This document shows positions 10,331-56,113 of a stretch of DNA of 56,113 nt, in pieces. How positions within the stretch are numbered: the first letter of the stretch is position 1; the number at the start of each line of letters is the position of its first letter. The position numbers were made by a program, and so were the translations under genes. The notes under the pieces are model-generated. The model was not told the origin of the DNA. It did not search any database and saw nothing but the letters and a program-made list of their open reading frames with translations. The stretch comes from a virus (lineage: Duplodnaviria > Heunggongvirae > Uroviricota > Caudoviricetes): IMG/VR virus record IMGVR_UViG_2923334124_000002; one strand, given 5' to 3'.

Positions 10331-10710
10331 AAAGTCGACACACGGCTGTAAGCCACACCCGCCATCGCATACGCGCTGAACCATTCATTCACGCGTACAG
10401 ACGGCCCCGCCATCACGCTGAACCAGCGGTTACGCACGGAATCTTCATGCCAGCGGGTATCGCTGTAGCGCGTTTTTTGCTCATCCTCAGCATTGGCATA
10501 ACTGAAGGACGTAATCAGCCCCAGCGCGTCCGTAAACTCATAACGGTATTTCACGTTAATCCCGTTCAGATCATCACTACCGGGAACGTTCGTCGAGGCA
10601 TGGAGATACCCCGCGCTCAGCGTGGACTGATGTTCTGCTGCACTCGCTGGCGTAGCAGCGGCGACCTGCCAGACTACTGCGGACAAAATAACAGCACATA
10701 ATTTACGCAT
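10331..10710 (-). pseudogene. lom: lom N-terminal fragment (signal peptide to ...AYSRVSTF)
   Basis: MRKLCAVILSAV...EHQSTLSAGYLHA... matches Lom; reading frame runs into IS sequence after STF. Confidence 0.8.
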
Positions 10711-10777
10711 AATTACCTCTCGCTTTTCTGCAATAAAAAAGGCGCCATTTCTGGCGCCCGTATCTGGGTTATAAAAT

Positions 10778-13700
10778 TCAGCTAATCGTGATGCCTGCAG
10801 TGGCTTTCTTCATCACCACAACCAGCAAATCGCTGATACTTGCTGTGGGATACCAGTTATTTACCAGCCATGCTGACACCGAAAACTCCAGTGTCATGTG
10901 ACCGTGACCGGCAGGCATATCAATAACACCACTGTAAATCAGCGTATTATCCAGCGCGGTACGGTTATAAATTTCAGCACCGTTTTTCCGCACTATCAGA
11001 CGGCATGAGGAGTAAATATCAGTATGCTCTTTCTCATGTTTAGCGCCGCTGAATGCCACCGCCGGAATAACAATCTGCCGGTCAAACGGCTGATCGTCAT
11101 AAACCCTGACGGTAATGGTTCCTGATGGCCACCGCTCCGGTGCACGGGAGTCCCGGGGGAAAGCTTTGCCCACTGTTTTAACGAGATCGCCTTCAATCTG
11201 GTTCGCGGACAATTTTCCCAGAACCCGACAGTTCTCGTTAATCGTGACGTTGTTGAGCGTCCCGGAGTTCGCATTCACGTTACCGCTGATATCGGCATTT
11301 TTCGCCGTCAGCCGCCCGTCCGGTGTCAGGGAAAATGCCGGAGGATTACCGCCGCTGGTAATGGTGGGAGCCGTCAGATATTTCAGGAACACTTCATTCA
11401 TAAATATCTGATCGCCCTGACCAACAAACATCGGCTTTGTGTTGCCATTCGCAGGATTAATCATCGCAATCCTGTCTGCCGCCAGCAGCACCTGACTCTG
11501 CATTCCTGCTGGCGTATTCTCAATACCGGCACCGATACCCGCAATATAAAGGCGTCCGTCCTGCATCTGCTGCAGTTTCACGGCCCACATGCTGTTCAGG
11601 TTATTATTTGTATCAACCTGAACTTTCTGTATCTGCTGGATTGCCGCACTCTGATTTTCCAGTTTTTTATTGACGGTCTGCGTGATTTCATTGCTGACAT
11701 TCGTAATGGACGTCCTGATTTCAGCCAGGTCCGGCGCAAGCTGACCGTTATCAATCTGCGTCCACAGCTCCTGGGCCAGATGTGTTTTCCCGATTTCTCC
11801 TTTGAAAAAATCCAGGTAACCTTCCGCATCATCGCTCGCCCGACCGACAGCCTCCACGAATGCCGATTTGCCAACAGTATTCACACTGCGGATATAAAAA
11901 TAATAATCATGGCCCGGTTTGATATTGATACTGGCAGCTATCCAGTACAGCGCCGAGCCAAGATAGCGGGCTGCGGTTTCAACCTGCCTGATATCCGCAA
12001 TCCGCTTTTCCGAGAACCAGAACTCAAACTGTACCGTCGGGTCATAAACGGCAAGATGTGGCGTTGCGGTTATCTGAAAATAGCCCGGCGTCAGCTCAAT
12101 CCGCGACGGTGCTGCCGGTGCGGCAATCCGGAAGGTGGTGGTGGCAGGTTCACCCTGCTGGCCATAGCTGTTTATCGCCCGCACCGTCAGGGTGTATTCC
12201 CCGAGCGGCAGGCCGCTGAAACGGTGCTCCGTGTCTGCGGTGATGGCGGTGGTCACCAGTCTGGCATCCGTTCCCTTACCACTGGTCAGGCGCAGACTGA
12301 AGCGCACACCCTTCACCACCCGCGGCGTGTCCCATTTCGCCTGCGCCAGATACTGGCCGTCAGCTGCGCTCACCTCCACCGTCAGGTGCTGCACTGCCGG
12401 TGGGATGACGCTGTTCAGGGAACCTGACTGCGGCTCAAAGCGGGCACCGTTATCCACGATGGCTTCTTTTTCCGGTACGTGCTGCACCGCCGTGATGGCA
12501 AAGGTGCCGTCCGTGTTTTCCCGGATGGAGACACAGCGGAACAGGCGACGGCGCAGTGACGGCAGGGAGAGTCCCCACACCCCGTATGTCTCCACACCAT
12601 CAGGCAGGGTACTGACCTGTATCCGGTCCGGCGCGGGGTGTGCGGTGATGTCCACACTCACCGGCTTACCGCTGCCGTTAATCAGGTTCACCGCCGATGT
12701 ACCTGTCTCCGGCAGGGTAACCTCACGGTCCAGCGTCAGGGTGCGGGTGGCAGCATCAATGGACAGGACACGTCCGCCGGTCAGGGTCCCGGCATAGTCA
12801 TTATCACAGATTTCAATAATGTCACCGGGTGTGTGCCGCAGCCCCTGAGACCCGAGCGTGAAATCCACCGTCTGCGTTTCCAGCAGTTCGGTCTTTATCA
12901 CCCACAGTCCGGCACGGTGGGCCTGACCGCGGCTGGTACAGCCGAACGCGTCCATCTTCAGCAGGTTGCGTCCGTAGCGCAGTATGGCTTCCGGGTCTTC
13001 CACCAGTTCCGTGGAGGTCTGCCAGCCGTTCTGCGGGTCGGTGTAATTCACCTCCACCGCCGTGTGCCGGTCCTTCAGGGCACTGAAGCTGTAGCGGAAT
13101 CCCACGCCGTTATCATCCACCACCACATCGCTGTTGGTGTACGGCCACACCACATCCGACGGGCGGTCCTGAACGAACGTCAGCGTCTGACCGTTCCATA
13201 CCGGCATACAGCGCATCGCAGAGCAGAAATCACTGAGAACGTCCCACGCCTTACGCTGTTGTGCCAGGTACGCATTAAAGGTCATCCGCGGCTCGGTCCC
13301 CCCGAAACCATCCGGGACCGTCTGGTCGCAGTACTGCCCGATGGCATACAGCGCCCACTTGTCCACATCCGCCGCCCCCAGACGTTTTCCCATGCCGTAG
13401 CGCGGGTGAGTCAGCATGTCCCACAGACACCAGGCCGGGTTGTTGCTGTATGCCGGTTTCAGACTGCCGTCCCAGATACCACTATACGTGCGTTTTTCCG
13501 GGTCATAGTTTGACGGCACCTGGATGATGCGACCGCGGATATGGTAGTTCACCGTCATCTGCTGGCCGCCGAACTGCTCCGCATCCACCTGCAGCCCCAC
13601 AATGGCCGTGTTCGGGTAGCACTGTTTCACATCGATGATTTCGGTGTATGACGACCACAGCGTCTTATTCTGCAGCTGGTCCGTGGTGCTGTCCGCCGTC

Positions 13701-39238: not shown

Positions 39239-39685
39239 GGAGTTTACTCACATCTGACAAAATCAATATAAACAGCCCCTCCGGAGAGGGGCTGGAGAGT
39301 GGCGCTATGTGCCATTGCATGGTGCCGGGTGCCTCCCGGTGAATTCAGTACCAGCACCTGAATCCGCGATTATCCCATATACCTACTCGCTGATTGCCCC
39401 TCCGCACAGGGGGATTCACCATGCCAGTTTCTTTTAACAAACTCCCCGCAAACCAGACAACAATCAACCGCCTGAATTGTGAAGTATTTAAAAATTTCTC
39501 CCGCTAACTGATACCCGGCTAACAGTCTGGCGTTTTCTTTTTCAGCAACGGGAAAGCAACAACCACCACACCCGCCACCAGCACACCGTCAGCCAGCACT
39601 GACATTATCCGGCTGCAGCAATGCCATTCACAAAAACAGTAAGCAATCACTTTTTACCGTAACCGGTGATAATCCAGATATGTAT

Positions 39686-40042
39686 CTACCCCAGATGAGT
39701 AATCCGAAGTTCATCCATACCACAGGTCCTGGCTATTCTGTTGTACTCCTGAACAAGAGTAAATAATTCTGAATTAGCCACCATGAACTCATCGCAAACC
39801 CTCTGTATAGCATCACTATTCAGAATAATAACGTCTCTTCCCGAAAGACGATCAGGAGTACAGAACAAAACTGTCAAACGGCTGAAGGCCTTTGCTCGTG
39901 CTGCATTGACTATATCAATACGCTGCCTAAGGATGAAACACCCCGACGCCTCATCAATATTCACTCTACCCACACCATATGAATGATAAATATTTAATGC
40001 TGAAAAAACCATTAGACCGTATAACAAACACTCAATCAACAC
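39686..40042 (-). CDS. hypothetical ORF (GTG start in track; possible ATG start at 40012)
   Basis: ORF only; weak translation signals. Confidence 0.2.
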   Translation of the reverse strand: MLIECLLYGLMVFSALNIYHSYGVGRVNIDEASGCFILRQRIDIVNAARAKAFSRLTVLFCTPDRLSGRDVIILNSDAIQRVCDEFMVANSELFTLVQEYNRIARTCGMDELRITHLG

Positions 40043-40149
40043 TTAACAGAACTTTTATTTTTGACAAACATATAATATTTTCAACAATATCCTGAGCCAG
40101 GTATATTTCAGTATAAGGCTCTGCCGGAAGGAATCTGGAAGAATGAATA

Positions 40150-40226
40150 TGGCGCGCTGTACTGGATTCGAACCAGTGACCGATTGCTTAGAAGGCAATT
40201 GCTCTGTCCGGCTGAGCTAACAACGC
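40150..40226 (-). tRNA. argO: tRNA-Arg (anticodon TCT)
   Basis: cloverleaf-compatible 77-nt sequence gcgttgttagctcagc...ccttCTaagc...ttcgaatcc...gcgcgcca read on minus strand. Confidence 0.8.
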
Positions 40227-40326
40227 TGAATACCGATAATGGACCGCCATCGGGGACCCGCCCCCGCACCAACAACCCTGTTATCGTGTCGTCTGCTCTT
40301 CCTGATAAGCTAATGGCGGTTTGTGA

Positions 40327-40402
40327 TGGTGGCCCTTGCTGGATTTGAACCAGCGACCTGGCGATTATGAGTCGCTCGCTCTCACCACTGAGCTAAAGGG
40401 CC
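40327..40402 (-). tRNA. ileZ: tRNA-Ile2 (anticodon CAT, lysidine-type) or tRNA-Met
   Basis: ggccctttagctcagtggtgagagc...actCATaatcg...ggttcaaatcc...gggccacca; closely resembles remembered ileX/ileZ. Confidence 0.8.
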
Positions 40403-40451
40403 GGGAGCAGAATAATAATGGTGCGTAATTAATTCTGCAATCTCATCCGTT

Positions 40452-41501
40452 TCAAACGATTAAACCCTGAACTTCCCTGACTGTCTGCTCAAAACGTCCG
40501 GTCTCCAGCTCAACGCCAATCGCACGACGCCCGAGCGCCAGTGCCGCTTTTACCGTTGAACCTGAGCCCATAAAAAAATCTGCAACCAGGTCACCCGGAC
40601 GACTGCTTGCGCTGATTATCTGCTGCAGCATTTCTGCCGGTTTTTCGCACGGATGTTTCCCGGGATAGAACTGCACCGGTTTATGTGTCCACACATCCGT
40701 GTACGGCACCTGCGCCGTCACACCAAAATACCGCCGCAGATGCTTATATTCACTCTGCAGCTCCACATACTGCCGGTTCAGTGACGTATACGTATCCACC
40801 AGCTGGTGGTGGGGCTTTTCCAGTTCACCGCGCTGATGTTTCTCTTCTGCCACCCGGGCAAACAGCGACTGTAATTTCAGATAATCGCTTTCGTTCGGTA
40901 GCTGCCACTGACTGGCACTGAACCAGTGCGACACCATGTTTTTCTTTCCTGTGGCATCTGCAATCTGTTTTGCCGTTATCCCCAGGGCCGCGCGCGCATC
41001 ACGAAAGTAAGAAATCAGCGGGGCCATCACATGCTGTTTCAGTGCACTGCCCTTCGCCGCATACCCGGCATCTTTCGGACGATACGGCCCCTGATAATGT
41101 TCCGCGAACAGAATGCGCTCTGTGGCGGGGAAATACGCCCGCAGGCTTTCCTTGTTGCATCCGTTCCAGCGTCCGGACGGCTTCGCCCAGATAATATGGT
41201 TCAGCACACTGAAGCGTTCACGCATCATGATTTCGATATCAGATGCCAGGCGATGACCACAGAACAGGTAAAGACTTCCGGCAGGTTTCAGCACCCGCCA
41301 GAACTGCGCCAGACACTGGTCCAGCCACTTCAGGTAATCATCGTCGCCCTTCCACTGGTTATCCCAGCCCTCAGGCTTCACTTTAAAGTACGGCGGGTCC
41401 GTGACTATCAGGTCAACAGAATTTTCGGGTAACGACCGGATAAATTCCAGGCAGTCGGCGTTGATTAACTCACAACTGGATATTTTTACAGTATTAGCCA
41501 T
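40452..41501 (-). CDS. DNA methyltransferase (N6-adenine/N4-cytosine class, DPPY motif), orphan
   Basis: 349 aa; VTDPPYF motif IV and C-terminal FxGSGST AdoMet motif; position between Q and tRNAs as in Stx phages. Confidence 0.85.
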   Translation of the reverse strand: MANTVKISSCELINADCLEFIRSLPENSVDLIVTDPPYFKVKPEGWDNQWKGDDDYLKWLDQCLAQFWRVLKPAGSLYLFCGHRLASDIEIMMRERFSVLNHIIWAKPSGRWNGCNKESLRAYFPATERILFAEHYQGPYRPKDAGYAAKGSALKQHVMAPLISYFRDARAALGITAKQIADATGKKNMVSHWFSASQWQLPNESDYLKLQSLFARVAEEKHQRGELEKPHHQLVDTYTSLNRQYVELQSEYKHLRRYFGVTAQVPYTDVWTHKPVQFYPGKHPCEKPAEMLQQIISASSRPGDLVADFFMGSGSTVKAALALGRRAIGVELETGRFEQTVREVQGLIV

Positions 41502-41652
41502 AGATCAATAAGCACTTCTCTGATAGGCTCATACCGCTTTTGCGCAAAGCAGATGGGCCTGAGGTTTGCTTGTGACCCCAACGCATGAGCAGATGGCTGG
41601 TGGGTGCCCCTAACACCCACCAGCCGCCCATTTACCACAAATAAAAAAGCCT

Positions 41653-41850
41653 TCACTGCGGAAGGCGTCTGTAACAACCGAACTGATAGTCTGCCAGACC
41701 CGCCATAACCAGCTGGGTCAGTATTAACTGGCAGCGTTCGCGTGAAAGGTAAGTATTCTGCGCAATCTCCCCGGCTGTCGCCGGTTCGGTGACGCTTAAT
41801 TCATTAAACACCACTCTGGCGGTTTCTGTCATATCCTGCTGTTTCAGCAT
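41653..41850 (-). CDS. hypothetical small protein (65 aa) between Q and methyltransferase
   Basis: internal start MLKQQDMTE with SD AAGGGA; followed by hairpin terminator. Confidence 0.4.
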   Translation of the reverse strand: MLKQQDMTETARVVFNELSVTEPATAGEIAQNTYLSRERCQLILTQLVMAGLADYQFGCYRRLPQ

Positions 41851-42076
41851 GTCTTTTTCCCTTTTCCGGTTAACGTGACACACCAATAACTCTTGTCGAA
41901 AAAGCCAGCAAGCTGAAAGACAGGTATTCACCGCCACCAGCGCGTTTACTGTACTGACGCGATTTCAGTCATAAAAAACCCGCCAGGCGGCGGGGTGTAA
42001 AAAATCTTCTAACGTCAGGCATAAAACGCCCATCGTTAGAGCAAATTTACCACAGATTCGGGAAAAATCAACAACA

Positions 42077-42898
42077 CTATCGCGTTACCCTCTTTAACTG
42101 CCGCTCCGCCCATGCCTCTTCAATGTCAAACCGAACCACCAACGTATCGTAAAAGCGTTTCACTGATTTTTTCCACGTATCAAGCGTGATAGCACTCGTC
42201 ACTTTGCATATGGCATTAAATGCCTCCGTTGATGGTAGTCTTTCACAGCCACGACCACCACAACGCTGGCAGTCTCTGATAACAGGCATACCACGTTTTA
42301 CCGACTCTTCACGATGAATGGCGACACCACGCCCACGGCAGTCTTTACAGGCAGTGGAAATCTCCCCCTTCCCTTTACATTCAGGACAAGAAACTTTCAC
42401 CACCTCCCGAATTTTTTTCCATTCTTCCCAGTAAGACGGATACACACCTTTCGTACACTTTGCCCATACTGGCGGCTTGCCATCCGGATACTGAACCTTG
42501 TTTGTAAAAACTTCGCCTTCAATAAATTTTTCCCCTCGGCAACAGGGGCACTGCTTTTTACTCGCTGCGCTGCGGGCATAATCCTCAAAAGCGTACGAAG
42601 CCATAATGCGCATCACTACCGGTTTTATTTCTGCCGGAAGTTTTCTCAACGCCGCCACACGATCGCACCGACTGAGTGCATAATCTGCCAGTAATTCTGT
42701 TGCCCGCGCCCTGTCATTCATACTGATGCCCATTTTCCCCAGGAACGCAGAAAACCCCATCTCAGCCCGATTCTGTGTCATGCCCTGCGCGGCCATCACA
42801 TCAGTGATACTCAGCGCATCTTTCGACGTTGAGGCCGATGCATCAGTCAGGCCGGGGGATTTTGGGGAGTAGTATTTCGGTAAATCTTCCAGTTTCAT
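42077..42898 (-). CDS. Q: late-gene antiterminator Q (zinc-binding type)
   Basis: 273 aa with several CxxC pairs; located between rusA and the late/lysis region. Confidence 0.7.
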   Translation of the reverse strand: MKLEDLPKYYSPKSPGLTDASASTSKDALSITDVMAAQGMTQNRAEMGFSAFLGKMGISMNDRARATELLADYALSRCDRVAALRKLPAEIKPVVMRIMASYAFEDYARSAASKKQCPCCRGEKFIEGEVFTNKVQYPDGKPPVWAKCTKGVYPSYWEEWKKIREVVKVSCPECKGKGEISTACKDCRGRGVAIHREESVKRGMPVIRDCQRCGGRGCERLPSTEAFNAICKVTSAITLDTWKKSVKRFYDTLVVRFDIEEAWAERQLKRVTR

Positions 42899-43275
42899 TT
42901 TTTGACCTGCTCTTCATGCATTATGGGGTAAATCTTCACCCCCAGACGTCCACCAGATACTGGCTGACCACGAACGATATTGATTTCATCAAACTGCTCA
43001 TCGTCCATTAGCAACCCCGCATGCGTCAGCGCATCCAGCGGCGCTTTCAGAATATTGTCCAGATCACGGCGGCGCTTATCCGGTGGTTCTGCAATAATTT
43101 TTATTGCCAACCTTCCGGACAGGCTTAATTTCAGCCGCTGCTGGCGAACAATAAGCGCCACTGCCCGGCGATAACGCTCCCCGGCTTTTGATACAAAATA
43201 TGTGCTGCCACGACGACGCCAGTAAGTGTTCACCGTTGGCGGGTAAGGCAAAACAAATTCTATGCGTTCAGTCAT
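42895..43275 (-). CDS. rusA: Holliday junction resolvase RusA
   Basis: 126 aa; ...YPPTVNTYW...DLDNILKAPLDALTHAGLLMDD... RusA signature. Confidence 0.9.
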   Translation of the reverse strand: MTERIEFVLPYPPTVNTYWRRRGSTYFVSKAGERYRRAVALIVRQQRLKLSLSGRLAIKIIAEPPDKRRRDLDNILKAPLDALTHAGLLMDDEQFDEINIVRGQPVSGGRLGVKIYPIMHEEQVKK

Positions 43276-44331
43276 TTATGCTTTCCACTTCAGAACACCC
43301 GAATTTCTCGCGTGCATTAAAAAACGAATCAGCAACAACAGCTGGCTGCCGTGTTTTTCTTCAAAATCTTTTACCCCGGCGTGTAGTTCGCTATGGCATT
43401 TACGGCACAGCGGAATAACAAACAAATCATCAGCCTTTGTTCCCATCCCTCCCAGTCCATGACCAATGATGTGATGCGGATCATCTGCCTGATTGCCACA
43501 CGTCATGCATTTCTGCGTTTTTACCCAACGCGTGTATACAGGCATCTCTTCCCGTTGTGATTTCTGGCGCTGGAGATACTGAGCCGGTGACTCCGGATCA
43601 ACGGCAATGCTGACCACCGTCTTTTCCTGTGGCGGGTTTTGCTGGTGGGCGTGAGGCAGCGGCGCAAGATTTTTTGTGCGCTGCTTCAGTATGCTGGTGG
43701 CGGTCTGCTCTCCCGGTACGATGTCGCTTTCACGGTACATTGAGCGGATTTTTTCCGCACGCAACCCCAGCGAACGACGTAATACCGCTTCCGGTAGCGC
43801 GTCCGCCACCTGATTGCGGACCGCCCACCAGGATAATTCAGCCAGCGATAATTCCCGTTCCTGCGAGCCATTCATTGCATGGCGTATGACGTCAATCATC
43901 CATGCAAACAGGTTTTGGTGAGCAAGTTGCCCGAGTGATTCGGAGGTCTGGTCGCGCAGCTGGTTGTCGCAGTGCCAGCACAACACCATTGCGCCGGTAC
44001 CATAACGGTGAATGACGGTTTCACTGTGGTGATAATCGCCGTGTGGCCACTGGCAGGATTTAACATGGCGCAGTAACCAGTCAGACAATGCGCCAGCGCC
44101 ACCAGCAGCACGAATCACTCGTTCGTCGCTGAAAAATGGCAGTAATGATTTATCCTCCGCCAGCGGCTGGCGAACGGCAGGAACGACCCCGGACGGCAGA
44201 TTACGCATGCTTTTCGGTTCCGGCTCCACCAGTACCCGGGTATTGTGGAATACCGGCATGGATTCACGGCCCGGCTTAACGATCACCAGCCCGAGTTCCG
44301 GTACCAGAACAGGTCGAAGTAATACCCGCAC
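43276..44331 (-). CDS. DUF968-domain protein (YdfU-like)
   Basis: 351 aa; C-terminal Cys/His cluster CMTCGN...HHIIGHGLGG...CRKCH; synteny with rusA and Q as in Qin. Confidence 0.7.
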   Translation of the reverse strand: MRVLLRPVLVPELGLVIVKPGRESMPVFHNTRVLVEPEPKSMRNLPSGVVPAVRQPLAEDKSLLPFFSDERVIRAAGGAGALSDWLLRHVKSCQWPHGDYHHSETVIHRYGTGAMVLCWHCDNQLRDQTSESLGQLAHQNLFAWMIDVIRHAMNGSQERELSLAELSWWAVRNQVADALPEAVLRRSLGLRAEKIRSMYRESDIVPGEQTATSILKQRTKNLAPLPHAHQQNPPQEKTVVSIAVDPESPAQYLQRQKSQREEMPVYTRWVKTQKCMTCGNQADDPHHIIGHGLGGMGTKADDLFVIPLCRKCHSELHAGVKDFEEKHGSQLLLLIRFLMHARNSGVLKWKA

Positions 44332-44772: not shown

Positions 44773-44928
44773 TTACTCCTCAGGTTCGTAAGCTGTGAAG
44801 ACAGCGACCTCCGTCTGGCCGGTTCGGAGTCGTACCTCGCAGAGGTCTTTCCTCGTTACCAGTGCCGTCACTATGACGGTTAAACAGATGACGATCAGGG
44901 CGATTAACATCGCCTTTTGCTGCTTCAT
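44773..44928 (-). CDS. hok: Hok-family type I toxin (HokD/RelF-like)
   Basis: MKQQKAMLIALIVICLTVIVTALVTRKDLCEVRLRTGQTEVAVFTAYEPEE is near-identical to remembered HokD. Confidence 0.85.
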   Translation of the reverse strand: MKQQKAMLIALIVICLTVIVTALVTRKDLCEVRLRTGQTEVAVFTAYEPEE

Positions 44929-45165
44929 AGCCTGCTTCCCCTTGCCTTTCGGCACGTAAGAGGCTAACCTACATTTGTGAGACATAGATTGGGCCTCAGA
45001 TTAATGTTAAGCGTCTTGCAGGACGCGAAATGTTAACTGGGGCTTTTCTCTATCTGCCTTTCAGTGTTCATGCCTGAGACAGATAGCCTCAAGCACCCGC
45101 AGCCATTCTACTTAACTCACGTCACCTCGCCAATATGAAATCAATCAGAAAGGTGATCCATAAAA

Positions 45166-45852
45166 TCACTCCTTCTCTTCTTTTCCGTAGTGGAGTTGGC
45201 CAATTTTGATAAGAGGGCGTCCCTGAGATTTGCGGTGTAGATTGGTATCGCGCAGAGAATACACACAGCCACAATATTCCTGCTGATAGAATTTTTCGCG
45301 CTTGCTGATTTCAATCATACGGGACGAGCCGCCCTGCTTGCGCCAGTTATAATCCCAGTACACCATACCCGGATAATGCGCAACAGCTCGCCGCCCACAC
45401 TCGTTAACCTGCTGCATATTTTTCCAGCGTGAAATGCCCAGTGAACTGCTGATCACACTGAAACCATTTTCAGCAGCGTACAACGCTGTCCGCTCAAAAC
45501 GCATGTCAAAACACATGGTACAACGGATCCCCCTCTCAGGCTCCCATTCCATTCCTTTGGCACGTTCAAACCAGTTGTCGGTGTCGTAATCAGCATCGAT
45601 AAACGGCACGCCGTGTTGTTCAGCAAAGCGAATATTTTCATCCTTACGAATTAAATACTCTTTCTGAGGATGAATGTTCGGGTTGTAGAAAAAGATGGTG
45701 TAGTCGATTCCCGAGGCCTGAAGCGCCTCCATCACTTCACCGGAACATGGAGCACAGCAAGAGTGCAGTAGTAGTTTGTTTGCCCCGTTTGGGAGCTCCA
45801 ATTTAGGCCGTTTGAAATCAGCAATAGTCATAAATATTTTTATTGGGGTCAT
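45166..45852 (-). CDS. queH: DUF208 / epoxyqueuosine reductase QueH-like protein
   Basis: 228 aa; [39 protein letters not shown] motifs match remembered DUF208/QueH signature. Confidence 0.7.
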
Positions 45853-48976: not shown

Positions 48977-49402
48977 TTAGTGCATCACCACAGCATTCCC
49001 TGCCGGGCCGCCGCGATTCATCTGGTCATACAAAACAACCGCTGACGCAACAAAATCATCGACATCCTTCACCAGCCGATCCCGCCGTTCGACGATCTCA
49101 CGGTAATATTCAGAACTGTGGCTGCGCATACGGGCCACCAGCAAAGGCGGCATCGCCTTTTCGATCGCCGGTAACAGAGCCTGCATTTTTTCAACAGCAT
49201 CAGGGGTGTCTTTATCCAGCCAACGGAAAATTTTCTGGGTATTACGGGCCAGGGCTTCCGGATGGCTGTCGTCATACAGTTCCGGGAACGTCATTCCCAG
49301 CTCGAAATACGCTTTGGTAATTTTCGCAGCCGGCACTTTTTCGCCGTCCGGATGCGCCCAGGCATTCATCGCCATGCGGATGTGTTCATGCTTGATTTTC
49401 AT
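48977..49402 (-). CDS. YdaT-like / CII-position early regulator
   Basis: 141 aa; immediately downstream of cro-like gene; family assignment by synteny only. Confidence 0.4.
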   Translation of the reverse strand: MKIKHEHIRMAMNAWAHPDGEKVPAAKITKAYFELGMTFPELYDDSHPEALARNTQKIFRWLDKDTPDAVEKMQALLPAIEKAMPPLLVARMRSHSSEYYREIVERRDRLVKDVDDFVASAVVLYDQMNRGGPAGNAVVMH

Positions 49403-49614
49403 GAATCATTCTTTCCTTCGTTCGAGGTGCTATCCTGCTTCTTGTAAAGTTCTGGGTTGTATTTCAATTCACCGTTAGTAATTTCATCCAGTTCCATTGC
49501 GCGAAGTTTGGGAATAACTGCTTTCCACCGCACAACAGCCACATGTGAAATTCCAAGAGCCTCAGCTACTAGTCGCTTTTTTTTGAAATAGCGCAGAACA
49601 TCATCTTTGAACAT
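49399..49614 (-). CDS. cro: Cro/DicC-like HTH repressor
   Basis: 71 aa; HTH KKKRLVAEALGISHVAVVRW; SD AGGAGAG; divergent from cI. Confidence 0.65.
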   Translation of the reverse strand: MFKDDVLRYFKKKRLVAEALGISHVAVVRWKAVIPKLRAMELDEITNGELKYNPELYKKQDSTSNEGKNDS

Positions 49615-49643
49615 AAAACTCTCCTGTTATTTCGAGCAGAAGG

Positions 49644-49705
49644 GTAACAATAGTTACATAACAATGTCAACCATAGCAACATCACTTGGTAGTAACATTG
49701 GTTAC
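49644..49705. promoter_or_regulatory. operator region OR: palindromes GTAACAATAGTTAC (49644..49657) and GTAACATTGGTTAC (49692..49705) between cro and cI
   Basis: two 14-bp GTAAC-N4-GTTAC palindromes; third copy GGTAACTCTTGTTACC downstream of cI. Confidence 0.5.
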
Positions 49706-50380
49706 ATGAAAAACACTATCAGCGAACGTATTCGGAATCGTCGAAAAGACGTTGGATTAACCCAACAGCAGGTTGCGAAAGCAATCGGCATATCTCGTGT
49801 ATCCGTAACAAAATGGGAAAATGGCTCTTCAAAACCTGACGGTGAGAATTTGTATCTACTGTCAAAATTGCTTTCCAAATCTCCTGAATGGATTCTTTAT
49901 GGAAAGGACGGTCACGATAAAACCGATGATCTGCGTCTGAATCAGTACCCTTACATTAGTGACAACATCGCCCGGTTGCCCGTTTTAACGTGGGAACAGG
50001 CTGGTTATTGGGATATGAGTTGTCCAGTAACCAAGATTCCTGGTATTAAGAACTGGGTTGATGTCATGACAAAAACCGCTGAAAACTCTTTTTTATTGCA
50101 TGTTGAGGGAGATGCGATGACAAACTCTAACGGCCTCCCAACCATCCCCGACGGATCTACCGTGCTGATCACACCATGCTCAAGTAACATTAGAGAACTG
50201 GTGGGAAAAATAATCTTAATCCAATTGGAAGGAACGCCAAACGTAACACTAAAAAAAGTTGCGATTGACGGACCAAACATCTATCTGTTGTCACTGAATC
50301 CGCTTTACAAACCCATCGAACTGAATGGTGGTTACACCATTAAAGGTAAAGTTTCACAAATACATCAATACTTAGACTGA
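49706..50380 (+). CDS. cI: CI-type prophage repressor (HTH_XRE + S24 LexA-like peptidase domain)
   Basis: HTH QQQVAKAIGISRVSVTKWENG; C-terminal S24-like domain; ATG at 49706 abuts the operator (leaderless-type); alternative start at 49664. Confidence 0.8.
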   Translation: MKNTISERIRNRRKDVGLTQQQVAKAIGISRVSVTKWENGSSKPDGENLYLLSKLLSKSPEWILYGKDGHDKTDDLRLNQYPYISDNIARLPVLTWEQAGYWDMSCPVTKIPGIKNWVDVMTKTAENSFLLHVEGDAMTNSNGLPTIPDGSTVLITPCSSNIRELVGKIILIQLEGTPNVTLKKVAIDGPNIYLLSLNPLYKPIELNGGYTIKGKVSQIHQYLD

Positions 50381-50384
50381 GTCA

Positions 50385-50412
50385 GAACCCGCATTCATTG
50401 CGGGTTTTTTAT
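50385..50412 (+). terminator. rho-independent terminator after cI
   Basis: aacccgcattcattgcgggtt + TTTTTT. Confidence 0.6.
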
Positions 50413-50453
50413 GCCCTCAAATGTACCTTTTGCAACATTGTATTGACTCGAAA

Positions 50454-50469
50454 GGTAACTCTTGTTACC
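50454..50469. promoter_or_regulatory. operator OL-like palindrome GGTAACTCTTGTTACC near a TTGACT -35-like hexamer (early-left promoter region)
   Basis: palindrome of same family as OR sites. Confidence 0.45.
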
Positions 50470-50652
50470 TTAACAACATACCAACCCACCCCGCCCCACA
50501 GAACGCCGGGCAATACTTCGAGTTACCAAGCAGTGGTCAGGGGGTAAGTAGCCAGCCCGAGGCGTAAGAACATGACGGCAGGGTTCAACTTTAATAACTA
50601 TGCAGCAGGTTTTTGTTCCGCTCCCCCGGCGTTAAGGGGAAATGAGGTCAGC

Positions 50653-50808
50653 ATGGATACTATCGATCTTGGCAACAGCGAATCTCTGGTATGTGGCGTG
50701 TTCCCCAACCAGGACGGCACGTTCACCGCAATGACGTATACCAAAAGCAAAACGTTTAAAACCGAAAATGGTGCCCGTCGCTGGCTGGAAAGAAACTCAG
50801 GTGAGTGA
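50653..50808 (+). CDS. ydfA: YdfA-like small protein (51 aa)
   Basis: SD GAGG; synteny with dicB operon. Confidence 0.5.
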   Translation: MDTIDLGNSESLVCGVFPNQDGTFTAMTYTKSKTFKTENGARRWLERNSGE

Positions 50809-50809
50809 T

Positions 50810-50938
50810 ATGGATTTCGACACAATCATGGAAAAGGCTTACGAAGAATACTTCGAAGGCCTTGCCGAAGGCGAAGAAGCTCTCAGCTTCAGTGAGTTTA
50901 AACAGGCGCTTTCCAGCTCGGCAAAATCTAACGGCTGA
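50810..50938 (+). CDS. ydfB: YdfB-like small acidic protein (42 aa)
   Basis: MDFDTIMEKAYEEYFEGLAEGEEALSFSEFKQALSSSAKSNG; below track threshold, found by manual translation. Confidence 0.45.
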   Translation: MDFDTIMEKAYEEYFEGLAEGEEALSFSEFKQALSSSAKSNG

Positions 50939-50967
50939 TAAGCGAAGCAGCACCGCGAGGAATCAGT

Positions 50968-51186
50968 ATGCAGAAACGAGAACCCGTCATCATCGCGCCA
51001 GACTATACCGATGATGAACTTTATGAGTGGATGCGCCAGAAAATTAATGCAGCGCAGGATCTGAAATGGGCCAATGAAGCCAGGACTAAGCAGGCTGAAA
51101 ATCTGTCCGCTCTGGAGCAGGATATCACCAGGCTGGAAAAAGCAGCGGCATTAAGCATTGCCAGAATGGTTACATACCCGCGTTAA
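50968..51186 (+). CDS. ydfC: YdfC-like protein (72 aa)
   Basis: ORF; synteny. Confidence 0.5.
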   Translation: MQKREPVIIAPDYTDDELYEWMRQKINAAQDLKWANEARTKQAENLSALEQDITRLEKAAALSIARMVTYPR

Positions 51187-51524
51187 TAGCTAACCAACGA
51201 AGCTAAGGTTGGTAATTAAGGAGTTCTCCACGGGTCAGGTGGAGTGCGTGCGCCGGACACGGGTGAACATCCGGCACTGACAGTTTACTGAAAGGATATG
51301 TCCCTGAAAAGTCAGGGCATAAAGCGAAAGCGCACGGCGAAATTGGTCTCTCTGTACGGTGTCGTTAAATTTAGTTCGACCGTGCGCTTCCGGTTGTGGC
51401 ACTCCGCGAAATGGCGCGGCGGTAAGTATGGCGGGGTTATTCCTTCCTCCGTTGAGGACACCGGGTTGTCAGGTTGACCATACGCTTAAGTGACAACTCC
51501 GCTGCAACGCCCTCTGTTATCAAT

Positions 51525-51582
51525 TTTCTGGTGACGTTTGGCGGTATCAGTTTTACTCCGTGACTGCTCTGCCGCCCTTTTT
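51525..51582 (+). ncRNA. dicF: DicF sRNA (ftsZ-targeting, processed from the dicB operon transcript)
   Basis: tttctggtgacgtttggcggtatcagttttactccgtgactgctctgccgcccttttt matches remembered DicF including terminator-like 3' end; preceded by about 340 nt ORF-free structured leader and followed by dicB. Confidence 0.6.
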
Positions 51583-51751
51583 AAAGTGAATTTTGTGATG
51601 TGGTGAATGCGGCTGAGCGCACGCGGAACAGTTAAAACCAAAAACAGTGTTATGGGTGGATTCTCTGTATCCGGCGTTAATTGTTAACTGGTTAACGTCA
51701 CCTGGAGGCACCAGGCACCGCATCACAAAATTCATTGTTGAGGACGCGATA

Positions 51752-51940
51752 ATGGAAACGTTATTACCAAACGTTAATACGTCTGAAGGTTGTTTTGAAA
51801 TTGGTGTCAATATCAGTAACCCTGTATTTACTGAAGATGCCATTAACAAGAGAAAACACGAACGGGAGCTATTAAATAAAATATGCATTCTTTCAATGCT
51901 GGCCCGTTTACGTCCGATACAAAAAGGATGCTGGCAATGA
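51752..51940 (+). CDS. dicB: cell division inhibitor DicB
   Basis: 62 aa METLLPNVNTSEGCFEIGVNISNPVFTEDAINKRKHERELLNKICILSMLARLRPIQKGCWQ, near-identical to remembered DicB. Confidence 0.8.
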   Translation: METLLPNVNTSEGCFEIGVNISNPVFTEDAINKRKHERELLNKICILSMLARLRPIQKGCWQ

Positions 51941-52128
51941 ATACAGCATTTGCACTTGTTCTGACAGTTTTTCTTGTTTCCGGAGAGCCAGTTGATATTG
52001 CAGTCAGTGTTCACAGGACAATGCAGGAGTGTGTGACTGCAGCAACCGAACAGAAAATTCCCGGTAACTGTTACCCGGTCGATAAAGTTATTCACCAGGA
52101 TAATAACGAAATCCCGGCAGGTCTTTAA
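51937..52128 (+). CDS. ydfD: YdfD (small membrane/lysis-associated protein)
   Basis: 63 aa MNTAFALVLTVFLVSGEP...; ATGA overlap with dicB stop. Confidence 0.65.
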   Translation: MNTAFALVLTVFLVSGEPVDIAVSVHRTMQECVTAATEQKIPGNCYPVDKVIHQDNNEIPAGL

Positions 52129-52220
52129 AACAGTTCCGTAATAAATATCCGGTTTCATTCTTATATGCCAGCAATGGCAGGGATTTGTTCACCCTTAAAT
52201 CTGTAATGAGGTAAAACAAA

Positions 52221-54692
52221 ATGAGTAAAGTCTTTATTTGCGCCGCCATTCCGGACGAACAGGCAATAAAGGAAGAAGGTGCCGTCGCTGTAGCCACTGC
52301 CATTGAAGCCGGTGATGAACGTCGCGCCCGCGCAAAATTTCACTGGCAATTCCTGGAACATTATCCGGCTGCTCAGGACTGCGCTTATAAATTTCTTGTC
52401 TGCGAGGATAAACCCGGTATACCCCGCCCTGCCCTCGATTCCTGGGATGCTGAATATATGCAGGAAAACCGCTGGGATGAGGAGTCTGCTTCCTTTGTCC
52501 CGGTTGAGACTGAATCCGATCCGATGAACGTCACTTTTGACAAGCTGGCCCCTGAAGTACAGAACGCTGTCATGGTTAAGTTCGACACATGTGAAAACAT
52601 CACCGTTGATATGGTTATTAGCGCACAGGAATTGTTGCAGGAAGACATGGCAACATTCGACGGACATATCGTTGAAGCGTTGATGAAAATGCCAGAAGTT
52701 AACGCCATGTATCCGGAGCTTAAGCTGCATGCCATCGGGTGGGTTAAGCATAAATGTAAGCCTGGTGCCAAATGGCCCGAAATTCAGGCAGAGATGCGCA
52801 TCTGGAAAAAACGTCGTGAAGGTGAACGCAAGGAAACCGGAAAATACACGTCTGTTGTTGATCTCGCCCGCGCCAGAGCCAATCAACAGTACACTGAAAA
52901 TTCAACAGGAAAAATCAGCCCGGTCATTGCTGCCATTCATCGCGAATACAAGCAGACATGGAAAACACTGGATGACGAACTGGCCTACGCTCTCTGGCCT
53001 GGTGATGTGGATGCCGGAAACATTGACGGCAGCATCCATCGCTGGGCAAAAAATGAAGTTATCGACAACGACCGCGAAGACTGGAAGCGTATCTCGGCAT
53101 CAATGCGCAAACAGCCTGATGCCCTTCGCTACGACCGCCAGACTATTTTTGGCCTTGTCCGTGAACGTCCGATCGACATTCACAAAGACCCTGTGGCACT
53201 GAACAAATACATTACTGAATACCTGACTACAAAGGGCGTGTTTGAAGATGAAGGAAGAAATCAGAGCGCAACTGATACTCTCTCGTCGCCAGTACCAGAA
53301 ACTGATGCAGTGGAAACGGCAATTCCGGACAACGAAAAAACCGAATGCAAAGTGGAAGTCGAACCATCTGTAGAGCGTGAGGGGCCGTTCTACTTCCTCT
53401 TCACCGACAAGGATGGCGAAAAATACGGTCGCGCAAACAAACTTTCTGGTCTGGATAAGGCGCTGGCTGCCGGGGCAACTGAAATCACGAAAGAAGAATA
53501 TTTTGCCCGCAAAAACGGCACATACACAGGTTCACAACAAAATACTGATGCATCTGACACGACCGCACAACCAGACCTGGTAAAAGTTACCGCTGACGAA
53601 GTAAACAAAATTATGCAGGCAGCCAGTATCAGCCAGCCTGACGCTAATAAGTTGCTCGCTGCATCACGTGGTGAATTTGTTGAAGGGATTAGCGACCCGA
53701 ATGATCCGAAATGGGTGAAGGGGATTGAAACCCGCGATTCTGTGCACCAGAACCAGTCAGAAACGGAACAGTACGACCAAAAAGCGGAACAAAACAGCCA
53801 AAATGCGTTACAAAACGAGCCAGAAACGAAACAACCTGAACCAGTCGTGCAACAGGAAGAGGAAAAAGTTTGTACCGCATGCAATCAGACTGGTGGTGGT
53901 AACTGCCCTGATTGTGGCGCAGTGATGGGTGACGCAACCTACCAGGAGACATTCAACGAAGAAAGCCAGGATGAAGCCCGGGAAAAAGATCCAGAGGAAA
54001 TAGAAAATGCCGGACTCCCGAACAAGGAGTGCACCGAAGGCGATCAACATGCCAATGACAATAATGAAATAGGCGAGACAGCAAATCCCTTAATTAAGGT
54101 GAACAGTCATCGTAAAAGCACATCCACCAGCAGGTTGTGGCACCATCTGATGATTGACCTTGAAACCATGGGAAAAAATCCTGATGCCCCGATTATCTCA
54201 ATAGATGCAATATTTTTCGATCCGCAAACCGGAGATATGGGACCGGAATTTAGTAAGACTATCGATCTGGAAACTGCTGGCGGAGTCATTGATCGTGACG
54301 TCATTAAAAGGTGGCTGAAGCAATCACGTGAAGCGCAGTCTGCCATTATGACCGATGAAATCCCGTTAGATGATGCACTGTTACAATTGCGGGAATTTAT
54401 CGACGAAAACTCCGGTGAATTTTTTGTTCAGGTCTGGGGAAATGGAGCCAACTTCGAAAACACGATTTTGCGCCGTTCATACGAACGGCAGGGGATCCCC
54501 TGCCCATGGCGTTACTACAACGATCGCGATGTACGCACAATCGTTGAGCTGGGGAAAGCCATAGACTTCGATGCCAGAACGGCTATTCCATTCGAAGGTG
54601 AGCGCCATAATGCACTTGATGACGCCCGTTACCAGGCAAAATACGTTTCAGTTATCTGGCAAAAACTGATCCCGAATCAGGCTGATTTTTAA
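52221..54692 (+). CDS. large early protein with C-terminal DEDDh-type 3'-5' exonuclease domain (intact YdfE-like)
   Basis: 823 aa; C-terminus has MIDLETMG, VWGNGANFEN, HNALDDARYQ exonuclease-like motifs; central acidic linker with CxxC...CxxC. Confidence 0.65.
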   Translation: MSKVFICAAIPDEQAIKEEGAVAVATAIEAGDERRARAKFHWQFLEHYPAAQDCAYKFLVCEDKPGIPRPALDSWDAEYMQENRWDEESASFVPVETESDPMNVTFDKLAPEVQNAVMVKFDTCENITVDMVISAQELLQEDMATFDGHIVEALMKMPEVNAMYPELKLHAIGWVKHKCKPGAKWPEIQAEMRIWKKRREGERKETGKYTSVVDLARARANQQYTENSTGKISPVIAAIHREYKQTWKTLDDELAYALWPGDVDAGNIDGSIHRWAKNEVIDNDREDWKRISASMRKQPDALRYDRQTIFGLVRERPIDIHKDPVALNKYITEYLTTKGVFEDEGRNQSATDTLSSPVPETDAVETAIPDNEKTECKVEVEPSVEREGPFYFLFTDKDGEKYGRANKLSGLDKALAAGATEITKEEYFARKNGTYTGSQQNTDASDTTAQPDLVKVTADEVNKIMQAASISQPDANKLLAASRGEFVEGISDPNDPKWVKGIETRDSVHQNQSETEQYDQKAEQNSQNALQNEPETKQPEPVVQQEEEKVCTACNQTGGGNCPDCGAVMGDATYQETFNEESQDEAREKDPEEIENAGLPNKECTEGDQHANDNNEIGETANPLIKVNSHRKSTSTSRLWHHLMIDLETMGKNPDAPIISIDAIFFDPQTGDMGPEFSKTIDLETAGGVIDRDVIKRWLKQSREAQSAIMTDEIPLDDALLQLREFIDENSGEFFVQVWGNGANFENTILRRSYERQGIPCPWRYYNDRDVRTIVELGKAIDFDARTAIPFEGERHNALDDARYQAKYVSVIWQKLIPNQADF

Positions 54693-54756
54693 TGTTCAAC
54701 CCCGGTCGTTGCCCACCAGCTATAGTGGCGGCGACCATGATTAGCGAACGACGCTC

Positions 54757-55005
54757 ATGGCAAGACTTATTCTGCTCACTGAGTGGGCAAAAGAGGAATT
54801 CAGTGAACCGGTCCCAACTCCGAGTACGTTAAGTAAATACGCTAAAGCCGGAATGATATTTCCTCTCCCCAAAAAAGTTGGAAGACGCTGGCGAGTGGAT
54901 CCGCAAGCTCGCTTTGTCGGAATGGTAAACAAGCCGGAGGTGATCGCCACAGATCACCCTGCTTTGAAGAGGATACTGGAAGATGGCGCGCCCGCGAAAA
55001 TATAA
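54757..55005 (+). CDS. xis: excisionase-like DNA-binding protein
   Basis: 82 aa; overlaps int start; HTH-like segment PSTLSKYAKAGMIFPLPKKVGRRWRV. Confidence 0.6.
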   Translation: MARLILLTEWAKEEFSEPVPTPSTLSKYAKAGMIFPLPKKVGRRWRVDPQARFVGMVNKPEVIATDHPALKRILEDGAPAKI

Positions 55006-56113
55006 AACCAATGTTCCGGGATTATCTCCGTATTTTGACAAAAGAAATAACAAAGTTTACTGGCGTTACAGGCATCCCATAACAGGCAAAAATCACGGTC
55101 TCGGCAGTATTGACCAGAAACTGGCAGAAACTATTGCAGCAGAAGCGAACAGCCGTCTTGCCCGGCAGCAAATGGAACAAATGCTCAGTCTGCAGGAGAA
55201 AATTATTAGTGATACCGGCGGTTCATCAACCGTTACCATTTTTCTGAATAATTACAGAAAAATTCAACAGGAAAGATATGAAAACGGCGAGATCAAACTC
55301 AACACGCTGAAACAGAAAGCGGCCCCTCTCAGGGTATTTGATGAACGTTTTGGCACCAGACCGTTAGATGCCATAACCGTAAAAGATGTGGTATCAGTAC
55401 TGGAAGAGTACAAGGCCAGAGGACATAACAGAATGGGACAAATTTTCAGGAAGGTACTGATCGATGTTTTCCGGGAAGCTCAGCAAACGGGCGATGTCCC
55501 GCCAGGCTTTAACCCTGCAGAATCGGCAAAAAAACCGCAGGTGCGGATATCAAGACAGCGACTGACTTTTGATGAGTGGATGATGATTTATAACGCAGCG
55601 GAAAAGGATGGTTACTTTTTACAGCGCGGTATGCTGCTGGCACTGATGACAGGCCAGCGCCTTTCAGATATTTGCAAAATGCAATTTTCGGATATCCGGG
55701 ATGGTTATCTTCATGTCGAACAGCAAAAAACAGGAACCCGGATTGCCATCCCTCTGGCTCTGCGTTGCGATAAATTAAATCTCACCCTAGATGATGTGGT
55801 GTCATCCTGCCGCGATTGCGTTCTTAGTCCGTGGCTATTGCACCACCATCACGCGAAAGGGACAGCTAAGCGCGGCGGGATGGTTAAGCCAGCAACATTA
55901 ACCGTTGCATTTAAAAAAGCCCGGGATTCTGTGGATTACAACTGGCGTGCTAATGGCACCCCACCCTCTTTCCATGAGCAGAGATCTTTATCAGAGCGAT
56001 TGTTCAGAGAGCAGGGGGTTGATACCAAAATTTTGCTGGGCCATTCGAATCAAAAAATGACCGATATTTACAACGACGCACGCGGTAAGGAATGGAAAAA
56101 ACTGGTCATTTGA
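54983..56113 (+). CDS. int: lambda-type tyrosine integrase
   Basis: 376 aa; catalytic-domain blocks ...LALMTGQRLSDICKMQFSDIRDGYLHVEQQKTGTRIAIPL... and ...FHEQRSLSERLF...LLGHSNQKMTDIYNDARGKEW... match remembered lambda Int; stop at window end. Confidence 0.9.
   Translation: MARPRKYKTNVPGLSPYFDKRNNKVYWRYRHPITGKNHGLGSIDQKLAETIAAEANSRLARQQMEQMLSLQEKIISDTGGSSTVTIFLNNYRKIQQERYENGEIKLNTLKQKAAPLRVFDERFGTRPLDAITVKDVVSVLEEYKARGHNRMGQIFRKVLIDVFREAQQTGDVPPGFNPAESAKKPQVRISRQRLTFDEWMMIYNAAEKDGYFLQRGMLLALMTGQRLSDICKMQFSDIRDGYLHVEQQKTGTRIAIPLALRCDKLNLTLDDVVSSCRDCVLSPWLLHHHHAKGTAKRGGMVKPATLTVAFKKARDSVDYNWRANGTPPSFHEQRSLSERLFREQGVDTKILLGHSNQKMTDIYNDARGKEWKKLVI

Follow-up and report, generated by a model that had tools for sequence, protein, structure and literature searches.

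A RecE-family scaffold with a predicted DEDDh exonuclease in the early-left operon of an ompW-integrated lambdoid prophage

The window, by which we mean the whole 56,113-nucleotide stretch of Caudoviricetes DNA analyzed here (IMG/VR record IMGVR_UViG_2923334124_000002), carries a ydfE-family gene for a protein of 823 amino acids that ends in a predicted 3′–5′ exonuclease domain. In the annotation of an identical record by the Prokaryotic Genome Annotation Pipeline (PGAP), the surrounding DNA is a complete lambdoid prophage at ompW, between ompW and trpA; related phages have been deposited as “PPompW”. An earlier note, made from the sequence alone, had marked the open reading frame (ORF) at 52221–54692, and these coordinates, with an ATG start, are exact. 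The gene is the last cistron of a CI-repressed, dicBF-type early-left operon (Table 1), and a 100% identical match to it lies in the chromosome of E. coli strain 4/1-1. As an object it is already known, being abundant in public data and named by PGAP: at least 1000 contigs carry the exact 823-residue sequence, matches to the gene occur in 4503 of 5426 complete E. coli genomes, and in 3532 of these at least 80% of it is covered. PHROGs assigns the full-length protein to phrog_2082 (“exonuclease”), and every folded part has a family already (YdfE_N and YdfE_C, the RecE middle region, and the Rv2179c-like domain). DnaQ/DexA-type nucleases of lambdoid phages and of E. coli are treated in two papers from 2025, but we found no experiment on the 823-residue protein in the literature searched.

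Table 1. Features of the exonuclease gene and of the early-left region around it (positions in the window)
Feature	Position	Strand	Basis or remark
CI-like LexA-family repressor, head of the early-left region	49664..50380	+	PGAP annotation of identical record
Upstream cistrons ydfA, ydfB, ydfC, DicF, dicB (51752-51940), ydfD (51937-52128)	50653..52128	+	PGAP; Rfam
DicF small RNA, between ydfC and dicB	51526-51577	+	Rfam RF00039, 76.7 bits
Intact ydfE-family ORF, 823 aa, ATG start	52221..54692	+	PGAP name “exonuclease” / “3'-5' exonuclease”
YdfE-type N-terminal module, residues 1-345	52221..53255	+	Predicted subdomains: 1-96 alpha/beta, 103-200 helical, 245-340 helical
Folded mini-domain, residues 386-438 (EGPFYFLF...), between acidic linkers	53376..53534	+	pLDDT ~80 (AlphaFold2, residues 346-823)
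Middle module shared with RecE, residues 454-625 (KLLAASRGEF..., zinc ribbon, acidic tail)	53580..54095	+	BLASTP, NF007259, DNA homology blocks ending at 53580 and 54094
Cys4 zinc-ribbon-like element, C551-x2-C554-x7-C562-x2-C565	53871..53915	+	Motif reading; metal binding predicted
Mosaic junction, codon 625/626, where DEDDh and PD-(D/E)XK alleles part	54094..54095	+	Protein identity to 625, then none; blastn against L005 stops at 54094
Predicted DEDDh (DnaQ-like, Rv2179c-like/DexA-like) 3'-5' exonuclease domain, residues 641-813	54141..54659	+	PF16473, Foldseek
Exo motif I, MIDLET (D646, E648)	54150..54167	+	Motif reading
Exo motif II, GNGANFENTIL (N744-F-E746-N; E746)	54438..54470	+	Motif reading
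Exo motif III, HNALDDA (H796-x4-D801)	54606..54626	+	Motif reading
Excisionase (54757-55005) and integrase (54983-56113), ompW attachment site	54757..56113	+	ORF list, PGAP; no gene between exonuclease and xis

The Pfam family PF16473 matches the C-terminal domain along its entire profile (positions 1–177 of 177), scoring 204.9 bits where the cut-off is 27 (E = 1e-60). When residues 346–823 were modeled with AlphaFold2, residues 637–823 formed a confident domain, with a predicted local distance difference test (pLDDT) score of ~80–90. Using Foldseek, the best match of this domain in the PDB was T4 DexA (8KEL; E = 4.5e-10, probability 1.00, template modeling score 0.65–0.73), followed by RNase T, oligoribonuclease (Orn), and REXO2, with 116 PDB matches at E ≤ 0.001; by sequence, DexA was the sole PDB match (E = 0.005). 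The motifs DLE, NFEN, and H-x4-D are all present, as the earlier note had read them, and motif I has the form MIDLET in 149 of the 159 homologs in which it was found. The Pfam scan of the 823-residue protein gave no PD-(D/E)XK domain (PF12684), while the same kind of scan found one in K-12 RecE, HK225 RecE, and P0079; the note had likewise stated that the nuclease is not of the RecE type. We are confident that the fold and activity class are those of a DEDDh 3′–5′ exonuclease. The 3′–5′ polarity is predicted from the fold class, and DNA rather than RNA is the probable substrate.

The same structural matches bear on an alternative, namely that the protein is an Rv2179c-like exoribonuclease acting on the 3′ ends of operon transcripts, small RNAs, or host RNAs. 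The Pfam family takes its name from an exoribonuclease, the structure search gave strong matches to RNase T, Orn, and REXO2, and the operon yields a processed small RNA, DicF. However, the best match by both structure and sequence is a DNA exonuclease, T4 DexA, and the domain takes the place of a DNA nuclease on a scaffold known from DNA recombination and is also found in DNA recombination modules. We regard an RNA-directed role as improbable. A specific role in DicF processing was set aside, as this is credited to RNase E and RNase III (PMC10448788).

The region preceding the nuclease is related to RecE. The RecE equivalog model of NCBIfam (NF007259) matches residues 246–625 with its non-catalytic part, at model positions 271–602 of 877 (253 bits against a cut-off of 1269), and K-12 RecE aligns by BLASTP over residues 262–625 (E = 3e-56). 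Residues 477–625 are nearly collinear with RecE 447–591 and ~80% identical to them, a stretch that includes the zinc ribbon and the acidic tail, ending ...ETGE-A-P-I. The protein thus has the middle region of a RecE equivalog, with its Cys4 element, while it falls below the full-length score and lacks PF12684. All four cysteines are kept in 85 of the 86 long homologs in which the element could be located, as well as in K-12 RecE, and the element is predicted from this motif to bind metal. The linkers that flank it consist of 25% Asp and Glu, in agreement with the earlier description of a central acidic linker with a CxxC...CxxC element.

Further towards the N-terminus, AlphaFold2 predicted three subdomains within residues 1–345 (mean pLDDT 79), from an alignment that took in a distant clade of Klebsiella, Salmonella, and Stenotrophomonas-phage sequences. 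The earlier note had called the N-terminal 550 residues unassigned, which holds for these subdomains insofar as they lack an informative solved relative. It does not hold for the region as a whole: residues 246–625 match the RecE model, and homologs of 88–99% identity carry precomputed Pfam matches to YdfE_N (PF27430) and YdfE_C (PF27432). The mini-domain at residues 386–438 is also conserved in sister alleles that carry a PD-(D/E)XK nuclease.

These sister alleles mark the place at which the two nuclease types alternate. A search with residues 1–625 identified 900-residue E. coli proteins that are ~88–92% identical over this range and then continue into a PF12684 PD-(D/E)XK domain. At the DNA level, blastn homology with one such locus (L005) spans 51307–54094, ending at codon 625. 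Phage vB_EcoS-640R1 is homologous along the upstream operon up to 52225 and again at 53580–54701, and its protein joins a RecE-type Exonuc_VIII N-terminus to a DEDDh C-terminus. Because of these homology blocks, we describe the gene as a three-module mosaic, with sequences joined by recombination near codons 1, 454, and 626. Recombination inside the gene is confirmed by the strongly unequal divergence of its segments between the same two alleles; in the comparison with allele L042, for example, the synonymous divergence (dS) is 0.05 in the N-terminal module and ~1.0 in the nuclease.

All four pairings of the two N-terminal types with the two nuclease types occur in nature. Exonuc_VIII is joined to PD-(D/E)XK in Rac RecE and HK225 RecE and to DEDDh in phages Chris1 and vB_EcoS-640R1, whereas YdfE_N is joined to PD-(D/E)XK in P0079 and to DEDDh in the window protein. 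As judged from these alignments, the nuclease of a RecE-family scaffold has been exchanged in this protein, whose predicted DEDDh domain sits exactly where RecE has PD-(D/E)XK. A full-library search with residues 1–345 returned 175 clusters at 50% identity; of the 57 long representatives with the N-terminal region in common, 14 have a PD-(D/E)XK domain and 10 an Rv2179c-like domain, and the remainder have no Pfam-recognized nuclease. “RecE-2” proteins without a nuclease domain have been mentioned previously (PMC12315714). In the literature searched, we found no explicit statement that nucleases of either polarity occur on RecE-family scaffolds and that RecT accompanies the 5′–3′ form alone.

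Two further relatives were encountered. Stenotrophomonas phage BUCT708 (L037:4974-7672) encodes a 710-residue protein with a YdfE_N-like N-terminus (28.5% identity) and no Pfam-recognized nuclease; it occupies the same int-proximal place and is followed by a gene of the Siphovirus Gp157 family. In E. coli GCA_002972015.1 (L044:737-3127), a common allele of the gene is split into ORFs of 456, 157, and 183 amino acids, with breaks in the two linkers that coincide with the mosaic-junction boundaries (residues ~453/465 and ~591/641). This split allele could be a case of pseudogenization or a naturally split, three-protein version.

The two nuclease types differ in what follows them. Among the loci examined, RecT lies directly after the PD-(D/E)XK form in four of four (L005, L006, Rac, and HK225) and after the DEDDh form in none of ten, drawn from five integration sites in E. 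coli and one Citrobacter phage; all ten run straight into xis and int. In the prophage itself, the PGAP annotation contains no annealase, single-stranded DNA-binding protein (SSB), Gam, or Abc2, with Bet and Erf checked by this annotation only. A tblastn search of the window with four RecT proteins, a Rad52-like annealase, SSB, Abc2, Gam, and a Sak4-like ATPase gave nothing below E = 0.01. Given the contrast between four of four and none of ten loci, together with these negative searches, the absence of a partner is real and systematic, and the annealase travels with the 5′–3′ nuclease and not with the scaffold.

The protein was also compared with two-component recombinases. Instead of an adjacent annealase gene, xis begins 64 nucleotides downstream, and, going by the fold class, the enzyme lacks the 5′–3′ polarity that yields 3′ tails. 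Since 3′–5′ digestion destroys the 3′ tails that annealases use, the protein would not be the exonuclease half of an Exo/Bet or RecE/RecT pair, and it is very likely not half of a two-component recombinase at all. The polarity fits the missing partner. The earlier note had already reported a place next to xis and int and no RecT- or Bet-like gene, both of which are borne out here; it had also said that a RecE-type nuclease with an overlooked RecT gene, or the lack of an exonuclease fold, would overturn its view, and neither was found when looked for.

The order of the operon is repressor, ydfA, ydfB, ydfC, DicF, dicB, ydfD, the exonuclease gene, xis, and int. The presence of DicF between ydfC and dicB means that the dicBF operon of the cryptic prophage Qin is found complete in an active-looking prophage. 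As the last cistron of a CI-repressed operon, the exonuclease gene should be made on prophage derepression. A scan of 49300–56113 found no promoter-like site on the plus strand and nine terminator-like sites against a shuffled mean of 8.0, which is weakly consistent with co-transcription from the operon promoter. The corresponding K-12 operon is DicA-repressed and has been described as ydfABC-dicF-dicB-ydfDE, of which, besides DicF and DicB, only YdfD has been characterized (PMC10448788). In K-12, IS2 interrupts ydfE after codon 255, leaving a copy that corresponds to the first 767 nucleotides of the gene at 96.3% nucleotide identity. The full 823-residue form is found uninterrupted at the rspB-proximal Qin locus in E. 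coli B and other strains, so the earlier suggestion that this gene is the intact form of the Qin ydfE fragment holds.

The prophage is also rich in Chi sites (GCTGGTGG). The window contains 14 against an expected 2.5 ± 1.7, a count reached in none of 100 shuffles, and 10 of the 14 are on the late-gene strand. A cluster at 39575–44106, mostly on the minus strand, lies near the cos-proximal end of the nin/Q region, and most sites group together a few kilobases away from the terminase and cos. Lambdoid phages that have no recombination module are reported to be enriched in Chi and to rely on RecBCD (PMC12315714), and the Chi richness seen here matches this class, which has no recombination (Rec) module.

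On balance, the reading we favor, as somewhat probable, is that of an annealase-independent, 3′-end-degrading DNA exonuclease on the RecE-type scaffold of a lambdoid (PPompW-type) prophage. In this proposal, the protein would consist of a YdfE-type N-terminal module (residues 1 to ~453), a Cys4 zinc-ribbon middle module common to Rac RecE (residues 454–625), and a C-terminal DnaQ/DEDDh exonuclease (residues 641–813). The scaffold would take the enzyme to DNA ends, where the DEDDh site would strip nucleotides from 3′ ends, presumably by two-metal chemistry with D646, E648, E746, and D801 as ligands and H796 as the general base. The enzyme would act alone, trimming or degrading 3′ ends during prophage derepression, and homologous recombination would be supplied by host RecBCD at the many Chi sites of the phage. 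As to its biological purpose, the two main candidates are end processing for phage replication and recombination and the exclusion of competitors; that end processing during lytic growth is the main role is our tentative suggestion.

Several points weigh against this reading. The predicted N-terminal subdomains had no informative relative in the structure search, and the zinc-ribbon middle module has a pLDDT below 50 in the model of residues 346–823; for both reasons, DNA-end targeting is extrapolated purely from RecE. Rv2179c, the founder of PF16473, is an exoribonuclease, and for this reason RNA may be the substrate. Transcripts reaching ydfE were not detected in K-12 (PMC10448788). DnaQ-type nucleases are reported in general to inhibit recombination (PMC12315714), which fits degradation but provides no positive function in phage growth. 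Finally, Glu746 is a minority allele: among 201 homologs in which motif II was found, 190 have F-D-N, 10 F-E-N, and one F-N-N. With Glu in place of the usual Asp, this allele may be a weak enzyme.

Taken further, the last point would make the gene a decaying or inactive remnant, with Glu746 marking a dead site, and it could be added that the K-12 copy was destroyed by IS2 and that split three-ORF versions exist. Selection argues otherwise. We compared six alleles from four integration sites by pairwise Nei–Gojobori estimates of the ratio of nonsynonymous to synonymous substitution rates (dN/dS), which is mostly 0.05–0.13 in residues 1–345, ~0.14–0.27 between diverged alleles in the zinc-ribbon module, mostly 0.17–0.27 in the DEDDh domain, and 0.33–0.65 in the linkers. 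The folded modules are under purifying selection, with values well below 1 in each of them, and only the linkers are relaxed. Moreover, the ORF is intact, its exact sequence and near-complete copies are abundant, as given above, and the change from Asp to Glu retains the carboxylate. We consider a dead remnant highly improbable.

The enzyme might instead serve recombination as an accessory, trimming 3′ flaps or non-homologous tails, or blunting 3′ overhangs for RecBCD, in concert with RecA and RecBCD or with annealases encoded by co-resident prophages. The closest standalone relatives of the nuclease domain (52–54% identity to residues 629–816) lie in Rec modules, alongside Rad52-like annealase, SSB, and Abc2, and are regarded as legitimate members of such modules (PMC12315714). 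The scaffold is common with RecE, the only known effect of whose N-terminal part is to enhance linear–linear recombination (PMC11611040). The prophage is Chi-rich and encodes RusA, and many genomes contain multiple lambdoid prophages, a single genome having as many as 10 places that match. However, 3′–5′ DnaQ-type exonucleases usually inhibit recombination, and the sporadic DnaQ-type genes next to int were explicitly not counted as Rec-module genes (PMC12315714). We regard this possibility as doubtful.

We also considered a phage-exclusion or defense nuclease in the style of “HREX”, whose DEDDh domain would degrade incoming foreign DNA, such as the modified DNA of T-even phages, with the scaffold targeting or regulating it. 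EcD, an E. coli homolog of DexA, protects against T4 and digests DNA containing 5-hydroxymethylcytosine (5hmC) but not unmodified DNA (PMC12153337); from its primers and residue A78, it can be equated with a 189-residue PF16473 protein whose identity to residues 644–816 is 36%. DicB, from the same operon, protects against phage infection once the operon is induced (PMC6832061). Although Qin has otherwise decayed in E. coli B and other strains, the gene has stayed intact there and under purifying selection, and a defense role needs no annealase. Nevertheless, the PADLOC defense models gave no significant match (best E = 0.027), the gene lies in a CI/DicA-repressed early-left operon and not in a lysogenically expressed one, and its closest domain relatives are found in recombination modules. 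An identity of 36% is too low to transfer the substrate specificity of EcD, which is a bare domain, whereas the window protein has 640 extra residues common to a recombination protein. Regarding the aromatic/acidic pair that reads 5hmC (W152 and D169 in DexA), W152, which stacks on 5hmC, aligns with Tyr766, and the position equivalent to D169 could not be aligned. We judge a dedicated defense role to be unlikely.

The possibility that the 823-residue protein is EcD itself was rejected, as EcD starts with MIDTET, has ~189 residues, and shows the identity given above. The published list of bacterial DexA homologs contains 34 accessions of the form WP_000048xxx (PMC12153337), a block in which alleles of the present gene also fall (WP_000048322, WP_000048435, WP_000048520, and WP_000048602), so that the list probably took in this family; a cluster look-up gave other accessions, leaving the link suggestive only. 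EcD corresponds to a 189-residue protein (MIDTETLGNGPDAAIF...) on the viral or prophage IMG/VR contigs L013, L018, L028, L029, L031, and L034, and because of this occurrence on several such contigs, the “bacterial” HREX nuclease appears to be phage-carried too.

Elsewhere in the window, an insertion sequence of the IS21 family, ISEc12 (istA/istB), breaks a prophage gene for a Lom/Ail-like outer-membrane protein at ~10375–12677 (NZ_CP023844.1 1480155-1482457). The nin/Q region holds, on the minus strand, a sok antitoxin RNA with hokD (44923–45098), the small RNA STnc100 (39264–39453), and two tRNA genes (40153–40402; Ile and Arg according to PGAP). The early-right region encodes a homolog of epoxyqueuosine reductase QueH (~45166–45831, minus strand; PGAP WP_000150294.1). 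Beyond it are a gene for an IraM anti-adapter and, just before the lysis genes, one for a 617-residue carbohydrate esterase of the SASA family.

RecE is a workhorse of recombineering, and the present gene has a match in about four of every five complete E. coli genomes. One bolder possibility, which we think rather unlikely, is that the RecE-family scaffold is a platform indifferent to polarity, targeting DNA ends or a host factor, on which phages swap “warheads”; these may be PD-(D/E)XK with RecT, DEDDh without an annealase, or no nuclease. If this were true, the DEDDh form would be an anti-recombination or exclusion weapon that eats 3′ tails, competing phage genomes, and linear DNA, which would explain why most E. 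coli strains retain an intact copy in their cryptic Qin. The natural allele series (5′–3′ with RecT, 3′–5′ without RecT, and none) offers a ready genetic handle on the role of the scaffold. It also allows the 3′–5′ exonuclease of the early-left operon to be weighed as an aid to RecBCD- and Chi-dependent growth against an anti-competitor function. The value of the locus is in this testable contrast; it is not a new kind of system.

Among known systems, Rac RecE shares with the window protein the middle module, with its KLLAASRGEF...DPNDPKWVKGI segment, Cys4 zinc ribbon, and acidic tail. The two differ in the first ~260 residues, which are of the YdfE_N type here and Exonuc_VIII (PF06630) in Rac RecE, and in the nuclease, which in Rac is the 5′–3′ PD-(D/E)XK domain PF12684 accompanied by recT and here a predicted 3′–5′ DEDDh domain without recT. 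The 900-residue P0079-type alleles have 89% identity over residues 1–625, with no similarity beyond, and the same dicB-ydfD upstream context but, unlike the window gene, are followed by RecT, Lar, and DUF1187 before xis and int. Qin YdfE of K-12 is the same gene in the same dicBF operon but lacks the middle and nuclease modules. On the nuclease side, gp34 of Salmonella phage epsilon34 belongs to the same Pfam family and is a standalone protein of ~182 residues, encoded between SSB and Abc2 and beside a Rad52-like annealase, whereas the DEDDh domain of the window is fused to a RecE scaffold and has no neighbors of the epsilon34 type. T4 DexA and EcD have the DEDDh fold in common with it, but both are small single-domain proteins, in contrast to the multi-module window protein. 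Mycobacterium tuberculosis Rv2179c, a cellular exoribonuclease, shares with it a Pfam family whose profile is matched over its full length here; Rv2179c is absent from the PDB sequence matches.

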